Sequence record: ON568341.1
DNA from: Escherichia phage UE-S1
DNA: 64,000 bases
Reading direction: 5' to 3' (one strand)
In this document: positions 2,425 to 35,035 of the stretch, in pieces
How the letters are laid out: the number at the start of each line of letters is the position of its first letter
How positions within the stretch are numbered: the stretch's first letter is position 1
The notes under the pieces: model-generated
What the model was told of the DNA's origin: nothing
Databases searched by the model: none
What the model saw: only the letters and a program-made list of their open reading frames with translations
Made by a program: the position numbers and the translations under genes

Positions 2425-3495
2425 ATGTATACTATTGATGATGAAATAATTAATAATAAATTTATTTCTGATACATACAATGCATATGATATATCTAAAA
2501 TAATTCTCAAGGAAAAGTATCCTCAATTTGATTGGGATACTATTGACCTTGAGAATTTAAAAACTGATGATTATTGTAAAAATGACATTATTGGATATAT
2601 ACAAGATAAAAAAAATATAAAATTGTATGGCATTAAATGTGAAAAATGCTCCCAAAATTACAAACTAAATGGTCTAGGGATATATTTTTCATATAAAGGA
2701 AATTTAGTTAAGGGTAAGTGTCCATGTAATTGTAGTAAGCATAAATTCTACACAAAATATCAAAATATTTTTTTGATTAATGAAAAAGCAAAAACGTTAA
2801 ATTATATTTTTTGTGGTTTTGTTGATGAGTATAAAGGTAAAAATAAAACAAAAATAAAATTATATTGTCCAAATAACAAACATGGTATATGGGATACAAC
2901 ATTAATATATAGTTTTATAGAATCAAACAATGGATGTATTAAATGTGCACATGAATCAGTCGGGTTAAGTAATAGTATAACTTTCGCAGATCATATAAAA
3001 GATTTTTTATCAACTGGTAAGTATAATAAAAATACAAAATTTTGGAAATCTAATAAGATTGACAGTAGAGGATATAATAATTATTGGTTTTGCCAATGTC
3101 CAATATGTAAAACTACAGTTGAGGCATCTACTACAAATCTTAAAAGTGGGAAAGTATCATGTTTATGTAACGGGAACACCCAGCAACAGGGATATATAAA
3201 TTTAGTACTTGACAATGATATACCAATTGCATTAAAATATGGAATAACATCTAATACAGAAGTCAGAGAAAAAACACAAAATCGCAATTCAATCTATGAT
3301 ATTGTAAACTGTGGTGTCTGGGAGTTTGAATCTTCTTTGTTATGTAAATCAGCAGAAGCGGAATGTAAAAGAACTTTCTCACCAGTACTTGAAGCTCGTG
3401 AAATGAAAGATGGATATACTGAAACTACATCACCATTAGATATTGACAAAATCATTGAAATATATGAAAATTGGGGTGGTGTGCGAATAAAATAA
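2425..3495 (+). CDS. Cys-rich hypothetical protein with three repeated Cys-cluster modules
   Basis: Clusters CEKC..CPCNC, CPNNKHG..CIKC, CQCPIC..CLCNG; likely zinc-binding. Confidence 0.5.
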   Translation: MYTIDDEIINNKFISDTYNAYDISKIILKEKYPQFDWDTIDLENLKTDDYCKNDIIGYIQDKKNIKLYGIKCEKCSQNYKLNGLGIYFSYKGNLVKGKCPCNCSKHKFYTKYQNIFLINEKAKTLNYIFCGFVDEYKGKNKTKIKLYCPNNKHGIWDTTLIYSFIESNNGCIKCAHESVGLSNSITFADHIKDFLSTGKYNKNTKFWKSNKIDSRGYNNYWFCQCPICKTTVEASTTNLKSGKVSCLCNGNTQQQGYINLVLDNDIPIALKYGITSNTEVREKTQNRNSIYDIVNCGVWEFESSLLCKSAEAECKRTFSPVLEAREMKDGYTETTSPLDIDKIIEIYENWGGVRIK

Positions 3496-5165: not shown

Positions 5166-5861
5166 ATGGTTGAACAATTCAATTTTGGTGGTTATGCTAA
5201 TGGTGAAGTAAGTAACATTTCTATTCCGTATGTAGTTGAAAAAGTTAATGGTTCAGAGCGTACATATGATCTAGCATCTCGTATGATGCAAGACCGTATC
5301 ATTTTCCTTGATACTGATTTCAATGACCAGATGGCACATATCATCAAACAACAATTGGTGTGGTTAGACTCACAAGGTGATTCCCCTATTACATTCTATA
5401 TTAGTTCACCAGGTGGTTCAGTACATGCAGGTTTGGGCATCGCTGATATTGCTAAATCTTGTGTATCACCAATCCGTACTGTAGTAATGGGTTATGCAGC
5501 ATCAATGGGGTGTTATACACAATCTGTTATTGGGACTAAAGGCTTCCGTTTGGGTGGTAAACGTTCCTACTTCATGTGTCACCAAGTAAGTTCTGGTACG
5601 AAAGGTCTAATTACTGACCAGAAAATTTCACTTAAACATTCTGATGAACTGAACACGTTGCTGACGAAAGAAATCGCTGAAGCTGTTGGTGTTTCTCATG
5701 AACAACTACTGAAAGATGCAGACCGTGATTTGTGGTTGAATGCTGAAGAAGCACTCGAATATGGTGAAAAAGGATTTATCGATGGTATTATCCTTGGACC
5801 ACGCAACGAGAAAGGTCAATACCTAGTCAAGCGTCGTGGTGGTGTTGAAGAGTGGGTGTGA
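5166..5861 (+). CDS. clpP: ClpP-family serine peptidase
   Basis: Motifs SSPGGSV, GYAASMG (catalytic Ser), MCHQ (His); extended -10 promoter upstream. Confidence 0.75.
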   Translation: MVEQFNFGGYANGEVSNISIPYVVEKVNGSERTYDLASRMMQDRIIFLDTDFNDQMAHIIKQQLVWLDSQGDSPITFYISSPGGSVHAGLGIADIAKSCVSPIRTVVMGYAASMGCYTQSVIGTKGFRLGGKRSYFMCHQVSSGTKGLITDQKISLKHSDELNTLLTKEIAEAVGVSHEQLLKDADRDLWLNAEEALEYGEKGFIDGIILGPRNEKGQYLVKRRGGVEEWV

Positions 5862-6765: not shown

Positions 6766-7290
6766 ATGAAATACACACACCTAAGTATAGATGATACTAA
6801 TATCTGGTTAGATAACATAATCAAGACATTAGAATTAATTAAACTTACATTACAGAAATCAATTGATATTGAAACTAATATTAAACACGAAATATTAAAT
6901 TATTATCACAGAAACAAATATTGTACGTTTTTCTCTAAATTAATTTATGGATTATATGATAGTGAAGATATTTGTATCGGTTACAGTACTGGTATTTGCT
7001 TTACAATTAATGGTTTTATGAATGATTTAAATTTCCGTCTTTCAGAAGAACAGCAAAAGTTTCGTATATTTTGTGAGAATATTATCGATAAAGATGAAAT
7101 ATCATTTGTTATTGAATTAAATAGAACATGGTCTACATATGCAGATAAACCATTTGAAATTAATGAAACAGATGTGTTAAACTATATTCGAGTCATGAAA
7201 ATTCATGATTTGTGTAAAAATGCATTGTTAAGTATTGGAGCTTATAATGAAACATACGACTTGGTTGAAGATAGCAGAAGTAGTTGCTGA
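6766..7290 (+). CDS. hypothetical protein
   Basis: ORF in array; 3' end overlaps cd start. Confidence 0.45.
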   Translation: MKYTHLSIDDTNIWLDNIIKTLELIKLTLQKSIDIETNIKHEILNYYHRNKYCTFFSKLIYGLYDSEDICIGYSTGICFTINGFMNDLNFRLSEEQQKFRIFCENIIDKDEISFVIELNRTWSTYADKPFEINETDVLNYIRVMKIHDLCKNALLSIGAYNETYDLVEDSRSSC

Positions 7291-7726
7291 GGAAAGTAAA
7301 TGTATTTCACAAAAAGTTGGTTGTGTTATTGTTAAAAATAATCGAGTATTGAGTACTGGATATAACGGTACACCATCAAAGCAACCTAACTGTTGTGATG
7401 TTAATAAACATCTCGTAAACAATGGTCAATTTCAAAATTGGATTGATGAAGATGCAAAACACTTACATCACGAGTGGAGCAACATTCATGAGATTCATGC
7501 GGAAATGAATGCATTACTATATAGTTCACCACTAGAACGTCAGGGTGCAACACTTTACACCACACTTCAACCGTGCTATACTTGTTCTAAGTTAATCGCT
7601 GGTAGTGGTATTTCTCGTGTAATTTACGAAAAATCTTATCCTCGCACTCCACCAGAAGCTATTAAAGTACTGGAAGATGCTGGGATTATTGTTAATTGCA
7701 TTTATGATAAGGGTCTTGATAAATGA
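7247..7726 (+). CDS. cd: dCMP deaminase
   Basis: Zinc motifs HAEMNAL and PCYTCSKL; N-terminus aligns with T4 Cd (ESKC..VG.VI.KN.R..STGYNG). Confidence 0.8.
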   Translation: MKHTTWLKIAEVVAEESKCISQKVGCVIVKNNRVLSTGYNGTPSKQPNCCDVNKHLVNNGQFQNWIDEDAKHLHHEWSNIHEIHAEMNALLYSSPLERQGATLYTTLQPCYTCSKLIAGSGISRVIYEKSYPRTPPEAIKVLEDAGIIVNCIYDKGLDK

Positions 7727-8281: not shown

Positions 8282-10183
8282 TTACGCACTGATTGTTACA
8301 GTTGCAGTATCTGTTTTATTACCATCAGCAGTAGCCACTGTAATGACTACAGAACCTTCTTCTAGAGCAGTTACTAATCCCTCATCACTAATAGATACTT
8401 TAGTAGGTTCATCTGCACTATAAGTTACTGATTTGTTAGTTGCGTTAGATGGAAGAACTTCTGGAACTAGTTGAACTGTTTTAGTACCTGATAGTGAAAG
8501 TTCAGTAGTTTTAGGTGTTAAACTAACACTGGATACAGGAACTGGAATATTAACAGTAATAACACCTTGACCTGTTTTACCACTTCCATCAGCAGCAGTT
8601 GCGATAATGTTTGCAGTACCATTAGTTAGTGCAGTTACAATACCAGTACTAGCATCAACTTTTGCTACAGCAGGTTCACTAGAAGACCATGTTACAGATT
8701 TATTAGTTGCGTTAGATGGAAGAACTTCAGCAGCCATTGCTTGAGTTGCTTTAACAGCAGTCAATGTTTTAGTTGCTGGAGTAACATTAATAGATGCTAC
8801 AGGAACTGGAATATTAACAGTTACCACGCAAACTTTAGTAAATCCACCATCAGATGTGGTTGCTGTAATATTTGCAGTACCGTTTGCAACAGCAGTGATT
8901 AACCCAGTTGGACTTACCGTTGCGACACCCTCAGCAGAAGTAGTGTATGAAATATCTTTACGACGAGCGTTATCTGGAATAACAGATGCAGTTAATTGTT
9001 GAGTAGCACCTACCGAAGTTAGGGTTGCGGTCAACGGAGTCATATTAATACCAGTTACTGGGATCGTTACATCAATCACTGATTCAGCAGTTTTAGCACC
9101 ATCATCAGTGGTAACAGTAATAGTTGTAGTACCGTTATCAACCGAAGTTACTAGACCAGTATTACTAACTTTTGCTACGTCTGGATATGAAGAAACATAT
9201 GAAACTGCTTTATTGGATGCAGTTGCAGGAGCAACGGTTGTTTCTAATTGTTTAGTATCACCTAATGTTGAGAATGTATAAGTACTAGGAGTCATAGTGA
9301 CACCAGATACCGGTGTTTTCACAGTGATAGTAGTAGTATCAGTTTTAGCACCATCTTCGGTTGTTGCTGTAATCACCACTGTACCGTTAGCAACACCAGT
9401 TACTAGACCAGAAGTAGGGTTAACGGTTGCTACATCAGGTGTTGCTGAAGACCATGTAACGTTTTTATTAGTTGCATCATCAGGAGATACTGTAGCCGTT
9501 AATTGTTGAGTACCGCCAACGTTAATTGTTGCAGTTTTAGGAGAAACAATAACACCACTAACTGGAGTTGTTACGGTAAATGCACAAACATCGGTGAAAC
9601 CACCATCATGAGTAGTAACTGTTACATTTGCATTACCATTAGCACGGGCAATTGCTAAACCAGTTTCAGCATCAACTTCAACTATTGTTGGAGCAGAGGA
9701 ACTATAACTTACTGTTTTATCATTTGCATAATCTGGATCAATTGTAGCTGATAGCTGTTGTGTACTACCAACTTTAAGTGCTACAACTTTAGGTGAAATA
9801 ATAACACCATCAACTGGAGTAGTATAATCACGTTTAACCACACGACCATTGTTCAATTTAATAATACGACCCATATAAAGAGTAGTATATCCCTTACTAA
9901 TCCCATCATCTACATAAATCATGAATGAATTGTCTTGAACCATATTAATTGCGTCTACTGGTTTAACGGAATTTGGAATGTCGATACCACGGGTATCATA
10001 CCAACACATGGAAACTTTGTAATAGATATCACCATTATCATTTATGAGATCATAAACGTTACTGGAACGTTGACGGTTAATATATAAAGTTTCGGTTAAC
10101 ACCTTACCATCGATTTTAGCGACAGAAACTTTAATACCACCAATACCAAATGGCAATTTACCTTCACTAGATATTGCTTTCAT
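8282..10183 (-). CDS. Ig-like (Big_2-type) repeat protein, possible virion decoration protein
   Basis: Only convincing - strand gene; ~150-aa N-terminal domain then about six ~80-aa repeats (VTVTTHDGGFTDVCAFTVT, ITATTEDGAKTDTTTITV, ITVTTDDGAKTAESVIDV); AAGGAAAG RBS. Confidence 0.75.
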   Translation of the reverse strand: MKAISSEGKLPFGIGGIKVSVAKIDGKVLTETLYINRQRSSNVYDLINDNGDIYYKVSMCWYDTRGIDIPNSVKPVDAINMVQDNSFMIYVDDGISKGYTTLYMGRIIKLNNGRVVKRDYTTPVDGVIISPKVVALKVGSTQQLSATIDPDYANDKTVSYSSSAPTIVEVDAETGLAIARANGNANVTVTTHDGGFTDVCAFTVTTPVSGVIVSPKTATINVGGTQQLTATVSPDDATNKNVTWSSATPDVATVNPTSGLVTGVANGTVVITATTEDGAKTDTTTITVKTPVSGVTMTPSTYTFSTLGDTKQLETTVAPATASNKAVSYVSSYPDVAKVSNTGLVTSVDNGTTTITVTTDDGAKTAESVIDVTIPVTGINMTPLTATLTSVGATQQLTASVIPDNARRKDISYTTSAEGVATVSPTGLITAVANGTANITATTSDGGFTKVCVVTVNIPVPVASINVTPATKTLTAVKATQAMAAEVLPSNATNKSVTWSSSEPAVAKVDASTGIVTALTNGTANIIATAADGSGKTGQGVITVNIPVPVSSVSLTPKTTELSLSGTKTVQLVPEVLPSNATNKSVTYSADEPTKVSISDEGLVTALEEGSVVITVATADGNKTDTATVTISA

Positions 10184-10557: not shown

Positions 10558-11163
10558 ATGAAACGATTATTGAAAGAGATTATACAAACCGTTGTTATAA
10601 TTGCTGCATTAAACTTTCCTGCGGCGGCAGAAGTTTCAAAAAAAGCATCTGTTTTTCTATTAAATGATCATGTTGGGTCAATTGATGGTGAACTAAATGA
10701 TAAAACTGTACAAGATGTGGAGCAGTTGTGGAAAGAAAAAAAATTTAAAATTTTAACAATTACATCACCTGGTGGTGATTTTGATGCTGGTATTAAAATG
10801 GGAAATTTTGTTAGAGACAATGGTATAAATTTAATTGTTTCTAGATATTGCAATTCAGCATGTACTGTGGTATTCTTTAGTGTGCCCCCTGAAAAGCGAT
10901 ATATGACAAATCAATCAGTACTGGGATTACATAACATTTCGATCAAAAGTAACGTTAGAGATAGGGATAATACCTTTGTATCTGTTAGACAATTATCAAC
11001 ATTTACTGAAGAAATGGCAACAAAAGTAGGATTTTTATTTACACTATATTCAGCTAATGGAATTCCACCTAGCGTTCTATATAGAGTTAGTCGTGCACGT
11101 GGTGAAGATGTTGTTATCTTAACAAAAAAAGACCTAATTCATTACGGTTCGGTAAATCCATAA
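10558..11163 (+). CDS. secreted ClpP/S49-fold protein
   Basis: Signal-peptide-like N-terminus (VVIIAALNFPAAAEV); ITSPGGDFDAG and NSACTVV..GLHN pattern parallels the ClpP motifs at 5166. Confidence 0.45.
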   Translation: MKRLLKEIIQTVVIIAALNFPAAAEVSKKASVFLLNDHVGSIDGELNDKTVQDVEQLWKEKKFKILTITSPGGDFDAGIKMGNFVRDNGINLIVSRYCNSACTVVFFSVPPEKRYMTNQSVLGLHNISIKSNVRDRDNTFVSVRQLSTFTEEMATKVGFLFTLYSANGIPPSVLYRVSRARGEDVVILTKKDLIHYGSVNP

Positions 11164-11231: not shown

Positions 11232-11492
11232 ATGACAAACATCCAGAATTTGACGTCTATTATTTTTTATGCTACAGTGGTGATGTATACTATTGTACTT
11301 ATTTTAACAGTTTTTATTTACAAAGATTACAAAAAAGGCTTTATTAATAGCTCAACAATGAAGTTCAATTCTAAATTTGAAGCAATTATATTTTATGTTT
11401 TGACAACATCATATTTGTTGTGTATAATGTTATTAGGGTCATTGATTTATATTTTATATACAACATTATTTGCAATTGGAGCTATTTTATGA
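11232..11492 (+). CDS. small membrane protein
   Basis: Strongly hydrophobic segments; stop overlaps next start (ATGA). Confidence 0.45.
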   Translation: MTNIQNLTSIIFYATVVMYTIVLILTVFIYKDYKKGFINSSTMKFNSKFEAIIFYVLTTSYLLCIMLLGSLIYILYTTLFAIGAIL

Positions 11493-12085
11493 CATGTATT
11501 ATTGCACACACTGATGGTGTAACTTCATTTATTGCAGGGGACAAGATGGGGAGTGATGGTTTTACGAAATCAATCCAAACAGAGCCTAAAGTGTTTGAGA
11601 AAGAATTTGTAAAGATTAGTGGTGATGACGGCTTGACTCGTACAAAAGATGTTATGACAATTGGATTCACTACATCATTTCGTATGGGTCAACTGCTAAC
11701 TTATAATTTAAATTTACCAGACCAAAATTCAAATGAGACGTTTCTACAGTATTTAGTACTGAAAGTTATTCCTATTATTCGTCAAATGTTTAAAGACGAA
11801 TGGGGTGCACGTGATACAACACAAGATGTTGGTGGTGGTCAATTTATTATTTTGCACAATCATAAGATTTATGAAATTCAGGAAGATTTTTCAGTTCTCC
11901 AGGCAAAATCAAGAGTTGCATCAGTTGGTAGTGGTACATATCATGCAATTGCAGCGATGCAAGCATACATTGATCTTGAGAAAGAAACTAACGTACAACT
12001 ACATGAACGTATCAAATCCATTTTCAAAATTGTCAGTGATAATGTGTCGAGTGTAAGCGAAGAGTTTGATGTATTAAAATATTAA
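11489..12085 (+). CDS. HslV-like N-terminal-nucleophile (Thr1) peptidase
   Basis: MTCIIAHTDGVTSFIAGDKMGSDG resembles HslV N-terminus ([23 protein letters not shown]) with Thr directly after Met; VASVGSGTYHAIAAMQA resembles HslV IAIGSGGPYAQAAARA; start set at ATG 11489. Confidence 0.6.
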   Translation: MTCIIAHTDGVTSFIAGDKMGSDGFTKSIQTEPKVFEKEFVKISGDDGLTRTKDVMTIGFTTSFRMGQLLTYNLNLPDQNSNETFLQYLVLKVIPIIRQMFKDEWGARDTTQDVGGGQFIILHNHKIYEIQEDFSVLQAKSRVASVGSGTYHAIAAMQAYIDLEKETNVQLHERIKSIFKIVSDNVSSVSEEFDVLKY

Positions 12086-12295: not shown

Positions 12296-12304
12296 GGATT
12301 GCGT

Positions 12305-13057
12305 ATGATATCAGAAAAATTTATAAGTAATGAAGGAAACAAGAGATTACTTATCATCTCAGGAGCAGGTCTTTCCGTTGAAAGTGGGATGGAGCCATTT
12401 CGATTTGATGATGGCTTATGGGATACATTTAAAATTAATGACGTATGTAATATTGCAAATTTAGATACAAAATATCATGTTGTTCATTCGTTTTATAACA
12501 CACTGCGTGTTAAACTGGGTCAATGTGAACCAAATGCAATGCATTATTTTATCAAATCCTTAGAGGATCAATATGGTGATTGTTTCCTTCATATGACCTC
12601 CAACATGGATGATCTTTATACACGTATTGGTGGTAAAGAACTCAAACTTCATGGTAATTTGTGTGAAGTGATAGAAAATTATAGTATTAATGGTGATGAT
12701 TATAACATTGTTAACTGTGGTTATGAGCCATATATACCAAAACATGATGTTTTTGCTAAACCAAATGTAGTGATGATTGGTGAATATCACCGTTACGTTG
12801 ATGGTGTTCGTTTGCCAATATACGAAGAAAGAAATAATGTTTTAAAAACACTTACCGAAAACGATACTGTGATTGTTATTGGAAGTAGCGATACAGTGCT
12901 TGTGTGGTCCAGATTAGCTGCGGCATTGCCCTGTTATAGCGTTAATGTTAACATTCGCAAAAATGATAATGATTTTCTGTTCAATGAAAAAATTATCAAA
13001 CCAGCTACCAAAGCAATACATCAATTAGAGACTATAATTAAGGAACGTATGAAATGA
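12305..13057 (+). CDS. Sir2-family (sirtuin-like) NAD-dependent protein
   Basis: GAGLSVESGMEPFR (NAD-binding GAGIS..GIPDFR motif), TSNMDDL (TQNID-like), LHGNL (catalytic His), VIVIGSSDT; no Zn-binding Cys pairs; start at first ATG (track ORF begins at TTG 12299). Confidence 0.7.
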   Translation: MISEKFISNEGNKRLLIISGAGLSVESGMEPFRFDDGLWDTFKINDVCNIANLDTKYHVVHSFYNTLRVKLGQCEPNAMHYFIKSLEDQYGDCFLHMTSNMDDLYTRIGGKELKLHGNLCEVIENYSINGDDYNIVNCGYEPYIPKHDVFAKPNVVMIGEYHRYVDGVRLPIYEERNNVLKTLTENDTVIVIGSSDTVLVWSRLAAALPCYSVNVNIRKNDNDFLFNEKIIKPATKAIHQLETIIKERMK

Positions 13058-13605
13058 GTGTTAAAGAAGTTCCTTTTGGTGAATATGGTTCACGTGCCAA
13101 TTTTGTATTTTGCTATTTCTTTGCAAGAAAATGTAACCCTTACGAAAATTACGAATTGAATGATATACCAGAAGTAAATTTAGTATTACTCCAATTACGA
13201 TGGGATGGCCTTCTAGGGGGATGTGGTGGGACAGTTGAAAGTACTGATATCTCACTAGAAGATGCGTTACGTCGTGAAATTCAAGAAGAGATGGATTACA
13301 ATATTTTTGTTTCCCATCTTCGACCACTTAAAACTTTTGAAATTTATCCAGGTGCAAACAGTCATAGTTTTAGCTATGAAGTAACCTATGATGAGTTGAA
13401 ACACATTAGAGATGGATACACTAATGCTAAACATGCGAGTGCTGAAGTGGCTGGTGTAAATTTATGTCATATTTCTCGTTATTCTAAGGGACAAAATCGA
13501 GAAGCGGGATATAATAATCTTATGACTCAGAACTTCATTGGTACAGCAAAACAAGAATTGGAGTATCTGGTTCAAAAAGAAAACTTACTAATTAGTTATC
13601 TATAG
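13054..13605 (+). CDS. Nudix-like hydrolase (non-canonical box)
   Basis: GGCGGTVESTDISLEDALRREIQEEMD approximates the Nudix box with a 3-residue insertion; start overlaps Sir2 stop (ATGA). Confidence 0.45.
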   Translation: MSVKEVPFGEYGSRANFVFCYFFARKCNPYENYELNDIPEVNLVLLQLRWDGLLGGCGGTVESTDISLEDALRREIQEEMDYNIFVSHLRPLKTFEIYPGANSHSFSYEVTYDELKHIRDGYTNAKHASAEVAGVNLCHISRYSKGQNREAGYNNLMTQNFIGTAKQELEYLVQKENLLISYL

Positions 13606-14294: not shown

Positions 14295-15734
14295 ATGAAA
14301 AAATATACAATTGACACAAACGTACTTCTATCTGACCCTAATGCATCTATTGCGTTTGATGGTGCTGCAATCATTCTACCATTTACTGTTCTAGAAGAAT
14401 TGGATTCAATTAAGAGTCGTAGTGTGGATGTTTCACGAGATGCTCGCGTTGCTATTCGTAACATTGAAGCAATTATTGCAAATGCATCTCATGATGAAAT
14501 TAGTAGTTCTGGTGTTAATATTGCTGATGTTCATACCAATATGAATCCTGACAGCAAATTGTTTGTTATTACAAACGAAGAAGCTGAAGCACTAATTCGT
14601 ACTAAAGGTTCAAACGACAAAGTTCAAACCCTTCTCAAAAGCACTGTACCTGATGATAAAATTATTCTGGTAGCTTTAGCAACCGAATCAGTACTGGTAA
14701 CTCGTGATATCAACATGCGTATCAAAGCACTAAGTTATGGTGTCGAGGTACAAGACTATCGTCATGATATTGTTATTGGTGATAGTGATTTGATTCACAT
14801 TGGTCAACATCATATGGAAATTAATTTTTGGGATGTATATAGCAATTTAACAAATACAAATATTAAAACTGAACAAATCGGTCGTCGATTGTATCATTAC
14901 ATCCCTAAAAGCTTGATTGAGCATTTGCTTCCACAAAATCTATGTATTGGTGATTATCTATATGATGATGCTGATGTATTATTTGTATACGAAGGTCAAT
15001 CAGCCATTGAGGAAGATGATGGTACACTAACACCAGAAGATATTTTGGTATTCCAAGATATTGGTCAATCAGTAGCGTTGCGTACTAAAGTATGGGATAT
15101 TAAAGCAAAGAATATTCAGCAAGCACTTGCCATCAACAGTATTCTCGATCCTGATGTACATCTAACAGTACTACTAGGTTCGGCTGGAACTGGCAAAACA
15201 TTAGTGACGATTGCTACTGCACTAGAGTTAGTACTGGAAAAACGCAAATATGACCGTGTTGTGTTCTCAAAACCACAAGATTCACAATGGGCTGAAATTG
15301 GTTTCTTACCAGGTTCCGAAATGGAAAAAATGCTACCACATTGTGGCCCTGCACTGGATGCATTAGAATTTTTACACAAAGATGATGCCTCACCACAAGG
15401 TAGTATCGAAGAGATTCTTAAACGTAACGTGATGCAATTTAAAGCACTAAACTTTGTGCGTGGACGCTCATTCACTAATACGATTCTTGTAGTTGATGAA
15501 TTCCAAAACATTACACCTGCACAAGCAAAAACTATCTTGACACGAGCAGGATTAAACTGTAAAGTAGTGATTATGGGAAACTTAGCACAGATTGATAGCA
15601 AATTTATCAGTCCAGTAAACAGTGGTTTGACATATGTAACTGAAAAATTCAAAGATTGGAGTGGTTGCCGTATCATTGAATTAGAAGGTGTTGTTCGTTC
15701 ACCACTTGCTGAATTTGCTGAAGAAAATATGTAA
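14295..15734 (+). CDS. phoH: PIN-domain PhoH-like ATPase
   Basis: N-terminal PIN motif (IDTNVLL..PFTVLEELD); Walker A GSAGTGKT in C-terminal PhoH domain. Confidence 0.8.
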   Translation: MKKYTIDTNVLLSDPNASIAFDGAAIILPFTVLEELDSIKSRSVDVSRDARVAIRNIEAIIANASHDEISSSGVNIADVHTNMNPDSKLFVITNEEAEALIRTKGSNDKVQTLLKSTVPDDKIILVALATESVLVTRDINMRIKALSYGVEVQDYRHDIVIGDSDLIHIGQHHMEINFWDVYSNLTNTNIKTEQIGRRLYHYIPKSLIEHLLPQNLCIGDYLYDDADVLFVYEGQSAIEEDDGTLTPEDILVFQDIGQSVALRTKVWDIKAKNIQQALAINSILDPDVHLTVLLGSAGTGKTLVTIATALELVLEKRKYDRVVFSKPQDSQWAEIGFLPGSEMEKMLPHCGPALDALEFLHKDDASPQGSIEEILKRNVMQFKALNFVRGRSFTNTILVVDEFQNITPAQAKTILTRAGLNCKVVIMGNLAQIDSKFISPVNSGLTYVTEKFKDWSGCRIIELEGVVRSPLAEFAEENM

Positions 15735-35007: not shown

Positions 35008-35035
35008 TTGACATTGAAAAATAATTATGTATAAT
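35008..35035 (+). promoter_or_regulatory. sigma70-like promoter
   Basis: TTGACA - 16 nt - TATAAT; -10 abuts the terminator hairpin. Confidence 0.5.

Follow-up and report, generated by a model that had tools for sequence, protein, structure and literature searches.

We describe a gene of Escherichia phage UE-S1, located at 11489-12085 of the 64-kb stretch of its DNA that was analysed as a whole (the window), whose product we take, with a probability of about three in four, to be a compact hydrolase of the proteasome family (MEROPS T1-type) that probably belongs with the AAH proteasome homologues, not with HslV, and that would act independently of HslU. Its assignment to the proteasome/HslV-type N-terminal-threonine hydrolases is well supported by family profiles and by the predicted structure. 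It is a gene of an ordinary kind, from a family already known and catalogued, whose orthologues bear annotations as HslV-family or ClpYQ-like.

Genomic setting and translation start

DNA around the peptidase gene is 94% identical to that of Escherichia phage ph0011 and 84-86% identical to that of 121Q, PBECO4 and other members of Asteriusvirus, a group of jumbo myoviruses of ~350 kb, across which orthologues of the peptidase retain 77-98% identity. The product agrees at every residue with the deposited UE-S1 protein UTS53792.1 ('hypothetical protein UES1_425'), and the product of the ClpP-like ORF at 10558-11163 is 100% identical to UES1_423. Orthologues of the peptidase carry the RefSeq label 'peptidase HslV family', and the combination of three protease genes in this region is not new, having been labelled (ClpP-like, ClpP-like, ClpYQ-like) in the 121Q record of 2014. 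A phage HslV without HslU has likewise been remarked on in a paper on another jumbo phage (PMC7823757). Papers on Sharanji, phAPEC6 and UE-S1 make no mention of the peptidase gene, and where experiments on proteasome-like or HslV-like phage proteins were sought in the literature, only mentions in catalogues or annotations came up. Features of the locus are collected in Table 1.

Table 1. Coordinates of the peptidase gene, its neighbours and related features (positions in the window unless a locus is given)
Feature	Position	Strand	Basis or remark
ClpP-family serine protease	5166..5861	+	Pfam CLP_protease, intact Ser-His-Asp triad
ClpP-fold protein, 201 aa, N-terminal signal peptide or anchor	10558..11163	+	PHROG_26024, weak ClpP similarity, model
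Small membrane protein gene, 86 aa	11232..11492	+	TGA overlaps the peptidase ATG as ATGA
Perfect sigma-70 consensus, TTGACA-17 nt-TATAAT	11400..11428	+	inside the 86-aa ORF, 60 nt before the peptidase ATG
Shine-Dalgarno GGAG	11478..11481	+	read from sequence; 7 nt 5' of ATG 11489
Thr1 (Ntn) hydrolase gene, proteasome-like, 198 aa, without propeptide	11489..12085	+	sequence, PHROG_1040, profiles, model
Two-segment hydrophobic ORF, 64 aa	12101..12295	+	directly 3' of the peptidase gene
Sir2-family gene	12299-13057	+	downstream neighbour
Nudt16-like Nudix gene	13054-13605	+	4-nt overlap with the Sir2-family gene
PIN-PhoH fusion	14295-15734		after the Sir2 and Nudix genes
Second perfect sigma-70 consensus	35008-35035	+	spacers of both sites 16-17 nt
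121Q gp581, ClpA-like double-AAA+, 762 aa	L091:15358-17646		outside the window; domains AAA, AAA_lid_9, AAA_2, ClpB_D2-small
121Q gp48, ClpS adaptor	L086:34461-35006		outside the window

The peptidase ORF opens with an ATG at 11489 and its stop codon ends at 12085; its translation contains MTCIIAHTDGVTSFIAGDKMGSDG...VASVGSGTYHAIAAMQA, the HslV-like N-terminus and later block to which an earlier note on this DNA had drawn attention, both of which are present as described. The Shine-Dalgarno sequence supports the start at 11489, as do the N-termini of the family: MT begins 117 of 120 homologues and 254 of 266 family members (MTC in 243 of the 266), and among the 150 matches listed from an exhaustive profile search most have their first residue aligned with profile position 1. 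The one upstream start that would bury the threonine, given as a Met at 11420 in the earlier note, proves to be an in-frame GTG, not ATG, and is ruled out by the family N-termini, the Shine-Dalgarno site and the overlapping upstream ORF. Judged from the sequence, the true start is 11489.

Translational coupling to the gene for a small membrane protein directly upstream, which had also been suggested, agrees with the ATGA overlap and with the two strongly hydrophobic segments of the 86-aa product; in 121Q the counterpart is gp474, and the 4-nt overlap is kept. This membrane protein was considered as a family-wide partner of the peptidase and rejected, since the homologue in a T5-like phage is preceded by an unrelated membrane protein; the products of the genes upstream of the homologues in Geobacillus virus E3 and in an Aeromonas phage are not hydrophobic. 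The two perfect sigma-70 sites in the window compare with 0.14 expected from shuffles. The site in front of the peptidase gene matches at 9 of 12 positions in 121Q; as it is not conserved there, the predicted promoter was set aside and no argument is built on it.

Active site, conservation and predicted fold

By the breadth of its homology, the ORF is far from chance: 324 homologues were found at E<=1e-3 in a word-indexed search, and the exhaustive profile search matched 9,293 cluster representatives (~9,300 clusters at 50% identity). The 198-aa sequence taken alone has no match in Pfam or PDB, so that the relationship is visible solely by profiles and structure. PF00227 is matched at E <= 0.01 by 10 of 59 family members. 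PHROG_1040 ('peptidase HslV family') is matched at E 2e-21, and the family profile searched against PDB retrieves HslV with the best score (E 2.6e-9), BPH (2e-5) and 20S beta subunits (~1e-4), a similarity to Ntn-hydrolases whose absence in profile searches the earlier note had named as refuting its reading. Alignment of this profile with E. coli HslV by hhalign extends over the full length at 97% probability, with T1, D17 and K33 in register.

Across 59 diverse homologues, once aligned, D18 and K34 never vary, and T2, C3, G59, G147/G149 and the block T61-T62-S63-F64-R65-M66-G-Q68-L69-L70 are invariant or nearly so. The predicted catalytic set consists of Thr2 (Thr1 after Met removal), Asp18 (Asp17) and Lys34 (Lys33), with Gly59 at the oxyanion position and G147-S148-G149 as further predicted elements of the site; removal of Met1 thus puts the conserved residues on the exact proteasome numbering of Thr1, Asp17 and Lys33. 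The proposal that the product is an Ntn-hydrolase whose nucleophile is exposed by loss of Met1 is borne out by these residues, by the profiles and by Foldseek. At an overall identity of ~30%, the N-terminus MTCI(I/V) and the motif (Y/F)TTSFRMGQLL near the oxyanion Gly are near-invariant across phages and bacteria, which suggests a tightly constrained substrate pocket.

The AF2 single-chain model is confident (pLDDT 93.7, pTM 0.90) and has the alpha-beta-beta-alpha sandwich of proteasome beta-type subunits. Structure prediction had been proposed as a check on the similarity to HslV, and Foldseek does place HslV first by E-value (1.4e-10); the best TM-scores (0.71-0.77) are those of BPH. Helices are modelled at 64-73, 85-105, 150-167 and 171-185, followed by a terminal strand at 193-197. 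The 'pore loop' occupies residues 106-118 and links H2 (85-105) to the strand at 119-123; it is 13 residues long in 42 of the 59 sequences, and its mean net charge is -0.9. The jumbo-phage (Asteriusvirus) subgroup carries, after the Lys33 strand, a confidently modelled hairpin extension of ~14 residues (residues ~38-55) that is missing from most family members. The place of this extension (S3/S4) was flagged by Fuchs et al. as the one that bears the substrate lid of connectase (PMC8665760). Taken together, the alignment and the model establish, at the level of prediction, that the proteasome-type site is intact and lies at the N-terminus of the mature protein, that a propeptide is lacking, and that the fold is like that of ring formers, with both helix pairs.

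Relationship to HslV and prospects of an HslU partnership

With HslV the peptidase shares the fold, the Thr1/Asp17/Lys33/GSG site and a nucleophile bared by plain removal of Met, and HslV is the family's best sequence-profile match. Four comparative tests nevertheless indicate that it is not an HslV orthologue: equivalog scores, interface residues, the pore loop, and the distribution of the family in Actinobacteria. Against the NCBIfam HslV equivalogs TIGR03692 and NF003964 (cut-offs 137 and 157.75 bits) it scores 17.1 bits, where the E. coli HslV control reaches 303.8 and 288.2. In the remote alignment with HslV (~16% identity), the positions of K28, R35, R83, R86 and R89 are occupied in the family by I/V, F, F/L, N/G/E and A/G, respectively; K28, R35 and R83 of HslV are presumably HslU-contact or pore residues. 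The positions of K80 and K90 are mostly basic: the latter is K/R, and at the former 47 of the 59 sequences have R or K. For R86, R89 and K90 of HslV a role of this kind is documented in PMC5777263, and for K80 in PMC6429459. The pore loop of HslV is described as 'merely a short linker', as opposed to the long loop of the unfoldase-independent BPH (PMC5777263), and the 13-residue loop of the peptidase differs from it accordingly. HslV itself is recorded neither in Actinobacteria nor in phages (PMC8665760, Table 1).

Used as a tblastn query, E. coli HslU revealed no HslU-like ORF in the 64-kb window; its single match in the whole genome of 121Q was the Walker-A region of the ClpA-like gene, so that no hslU gene lies beside the peptidase gene or elsewhere in the genome, as searched in 121Q. 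Among phage records the same query matched 4 Escherichia records, against at least 20 Asteriusvirus Escherichia records that have the peptidase; HslU-like genes do occur in other jumbo phages (Erwinia, Salmonella), and no Asteriusvirus is among the 40 records listed for this search. The host, E. coli, has HslU. The description of the gene as a phage HslV without HslU therefore stands in its second part, for the window and for 121Q, and falls in its first, given 17 bits against cut-offs of 137 and 158. The further suggestion that the phage hijacks host HslU is disfavoured: the interface and basic pore residues of HslV are not conserved, the model is structurally at least as close to BPH, and the family is at home in Actinobacteria. 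As far as alignment and model can tell, the peptidase shows no sign of HslU use, and the evidence argues against the hijack.

Affiliation and distribution of the family

Cellular members of the family were found at 220 loci, mostly in Streptomyces, Actinoplanes and Polyangiaceae (Myxococcota), with others in Asanoa, Dehalococcoidia and a few alpha- and beta-proteobacteria (Gluconacetobacter, Paraburkholderia). Phage members comprise 197 records, which include T5-like Epseptimavirus as well as Vibrio, Aeromonas, Geobacillus E3 and Moorella phages. HslV and BPH are sister families of this very large one, which occurs in many tailed phages, Actinobacteria, Myxococcota and others.

Most probably it corresponds to AAH, a phage-borne group I proteasome homologue with no detectable AAA+ partner (Fuchs, Alva and Lupas 2021; PMC8665760), to which we match it by description, that is, by size, secondary-structure elements and taxonomic distribution. 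Both have compact subunits of ~180-200 aa without a propeptide, helices H1-H4, no C-terminal S12/H5 and the Thr1/Asp17/Lys33 triad, and the peptidase has no large insertions, in keeping with group I architecture; the hairpin extension after the Lys33 strand, which the Asteriusvirus subgroup adds, is a minor departure from it. In both, Actinobacteria hold the largest share of the cellular members, further ones come from proteobacteria and other groups, and numerous phages carry the gene; no AAA+ partner is known for either. The AAH representative WP_035979212 (KEGG OC.661151) is absent among the listed cluster members of the cellular homologues.

Two other proteasome homologues were compared. 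On the evidence of the model, the peptidase resembles the unfoldase-independent BPH (PDB 5OVS/5OVU) in structure no less than it does HslV, and it shares with BPH a long pore loop of the 13-residue type; this loop is mildly acidic here, in place of the Asp/Glu run of BPH, and the family profile scores BPH below HslV. In vitro, BPH left standard substrates uncleaved (PMC5777263), so that even the term 'protease' is presumptive for the phage protein. PPH, the other main family in phages, is, like the peptidase, a phage-borne group I proteasome homologue, but its ~140 residues and its lack of helix H2 (PMC8665760) do not fit a protein of 198 residues with a clear H2 at 85-105, and PPH was rejected as its family.

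Two features of individual members may be mentioned. Several Streptomyces members (L036, L044, L065, L068) appear to start at TTG followed by Thr, LTVIVGL being read as fMet-T-V-I-V-G, and these start calls are those of the deposited proteins (exact look-up). Aeromonas phage 2L372X has two tandem 'peptidase HslV family' genes (L084:4001-4552 and the next, across the record origin) near PhoH, and two such genes have been reported for the Salmonella jumbo phage pSal-SNUABM-04 (PMC7823757); paralogous pairs of this kind could form hetero-oligomeric rings.

The ClpP-like genes

The earlier note had placed a canonical ClpP at 5166-5861, and the product indeed matches Pfam CLP_protease at E 3.9e-41 (141 bits; cut-off 20.2), shares 37% identity with E. 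coli ClpP and keeps Ser, His and Asp in alignment with S111, H136 and D185. Its score against the NCBIfam ClpP equivalog, 151 against a cut-off of 308.6, marks it as a divergent member. A role as head-maturation protease, as its PHROG label has it, is unlikely, and the label was rejected on the grounds that in 121Q the prohead protease, T4 gp21-like, is a gene of its own (gp601) and that ClpA-like and ClpS genes occur there as well. Besides 121Q, ph0011 and all other Asteriusvirus genomes checked have the ClpA-like gene, which lies ~79 kb from the peptidase gene in 121Q and ph0011. At the position of the ClpP-docking loop of ClpA, gp581 has 'SIGMSG' (IGM), where E. coli ClpA has IGL. Going by sequence, the ClpA-like unfoldase and ClpS adaptor encoded in close relatives (121Q, ph0011) could be the partners of this ClpP, and the three may possibly constitute a complete Clp set in Asteriusvirus.

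The second ClpP-like ORF, at 10558-11163, conforms to its earlier description as signal-peptide-bearing: its N-terminus is a hydrophobic helix, after which comes ...NFPAAA|EV. Its sequence similarity to ClpP is weak (E 0.008 and E 2e-4); the model is of moderate confidence (pLDDT 69.7), and its top PDB matches are all ClpP. The small family to which it belongs is restricted to Asteriusvirus-like phages and has as invariants TSPGGDFD, CNS(A/S)C (Ser100) and GLHN (His125). This ORF probably encodes an exported serine hydrolase of ClpP fold, as modelled, and not a cytoplasmic chamber protease. The notion of three self-compartmentalising proteases without partners has to be qualified, as the ClpP has candidate phage partners and the other ClpP-fold product is predicted to be exported.

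Neighbouring genes

The 64-aa hydrophobic ORF directly downstream of the peptidase gene is kept in 121Q (L001:13338-13532), where it lies unannotated in the interval between gp475 and gp476. Beyond it, the phage Sir2 gene beside a Nudix hydrolase may have a bearing on NAD/ADP-ribose metabolism in infection. A 633-aa protein with six Big_2 Ig-like repeats is encoded at 8282-10183 on the minus strand; its syntenic counterpart in 121Q, gp471 ('structural protein; Ig domain'), has just 125 aa, so that the repeat array appears much expanded in UE-S1. A 356-aa ORF containing a pair of CapR homology domains (PF21817), at 2425-3495 on the plus strand, lies between genes for DNA ligase and a metallophosphoesterase and looks like an inserted gene, since these two are adjacent in 121Q.

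In the T5-like Salmonella phage fuchur (L083:2164-4579) the gene order is RNR, DHFR, ThyA, the unrelated membrane protein, peptidase and RNase H, and in Geobacillus virus E3 (L085:1761-4582) the peptidase gene follows ThyA and DHFR; in these two very distant phages a proteasome-like gene thus occurs just 3' of thymidylate synthase and dihydrofolate reductase. A dCMP deaminase gene is located in the window at 7235-7726, ~4 kb upstream of the peptidase gene. Proximity to genes of nucleotide metabolism could be a coincidence within such modules, and the neighbourhoods in other phages offer no functional clue to the peptidase.

Discussion

The properties predicted for the phage enzyme are most easily reconciled with a proteasome-type hydrolase that needs no HslU. 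It would be made without a propeptide, and host methionine aminopeptidase would take off Met1, so that the free alpha-amino and hydroxyl groups of Thr1 would form, with Asp17, Lys33, a backbone Gly and the G-S-G loop, the classical proteasome site. Its subunits would most likely assemble into stacked rings like those of HslV or BPH, with the active sites inside, and during infection would cleave polypeptides of the host or the phage, unfolded or specific ones, with no need of HslU, by themselves or together with another factor. The H2-S7 pore loop and the jumbo-phage hairpin extension are candidates for shaping the access of substrates.

An improbable alternative is that the peptidase is a functional substitute for HslV, whose hexameric rings dock the C-terminal tails of host HslU and redirect this unfoldase to substrates chosen by the phage. 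It would account for HslV being the best match by both sequence profile and Foldseek E-value, for the basic residue at the K80 position in 47 of 59 sequences, and for a phage that has no HslU of its own (121Q searched) in a host that does. It is at odds with a score of 17 bits against equivalog cut-offs of 137 and 158, with the lack of conservation at the K28, R35, R83, R86 and R89 positions, and with a long pore loop unlike the short linker of HslV (PMC5777263). Nor does it sit well with a family that thrives in Actinobacteria, which lack HslVU (PMC8665760, Table 1), that occurs in phages of hosts as diverse as Geobacillus and Moorella, and for the likes of which no co-occurring AAA+ partner is found (Fuchs et al.; PMC8665760). 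A partner closer at hand would be the phage ClpA-like AAA+ unfoldase, with which the peptidase, alone or in competition with the phage ClpP, would make up a hybrid ATP-dependent protease. All Asteriusvirus genomes checked encode the 762-aa protein, 121Q has ClpS in addition, and no other partner for the peptidase is obvious; yet the two genes are ~79 kb apart in 121Q and ph0011, the IGM at the docking-loop position points to ClpP as the partner, and the neighbourhoods of the peptidase gene in T5-like, Vibrio and Aeromonas phages show no Clp ATPase. We know of no proteasome-fold protease that docks Clp ATPases, and consider such a hybrid very improbable indeed.

Different in kind is the suggestion of a specific amide-bond enzyme (an amidase, a transpeptidase or a processing peptidase, for example) that would work as a small oligomer or a monomer on a single substrate, in the manner of connectase, a member of the same superfamily. 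The rigid MTCI(I/V) and (Y/F)TTSFRMGQLL motifs suggest a constrained, specific site, and 4 of the 59 members weakly match the Pfam model of the connectase N-terminal domain; the inactivity of BPH on generic substrates (PMC5777263) and the warning of Fuchs et al. that ring formation may not extend to all of the new homologues (PMC8665760) point in the same direction. The specific enzyme appears to us distinctly unlikely. A narrower version of the preferred reading, itself rather unlikely, would have the peptidase serve as an unfoldase-independent mini-proteasome that is used early against particular host proteins (e.g. those of defence or stress), with the hairpin and pore loop as its substrate gate; under this version the gene, which sits between those for small membrane proteins, may have its own strong sigma-70 promoter. 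If true, the peptidase would become the first viral proteasome homologue with a functional role.

For the UE-S1 record, the gain is that UES1_425 may be called a proteasome-like Thr1 peptidase in place of a 'hypothetical protein'. The hijack of HslU would be of interest if true, and the present evidence argues against it. Viral proteasome homologues have been catalogued, and the UE-S1 locus adds nothing unexpected to them. The family is large, its active site is rigidly conserved, and its coliphage members are easy to work with, so that the gene of an Asteriusvirus or Epseptimavirus offers a convenient entry point to the role of a stand-alone proteasome-like enzyme in bacteria.
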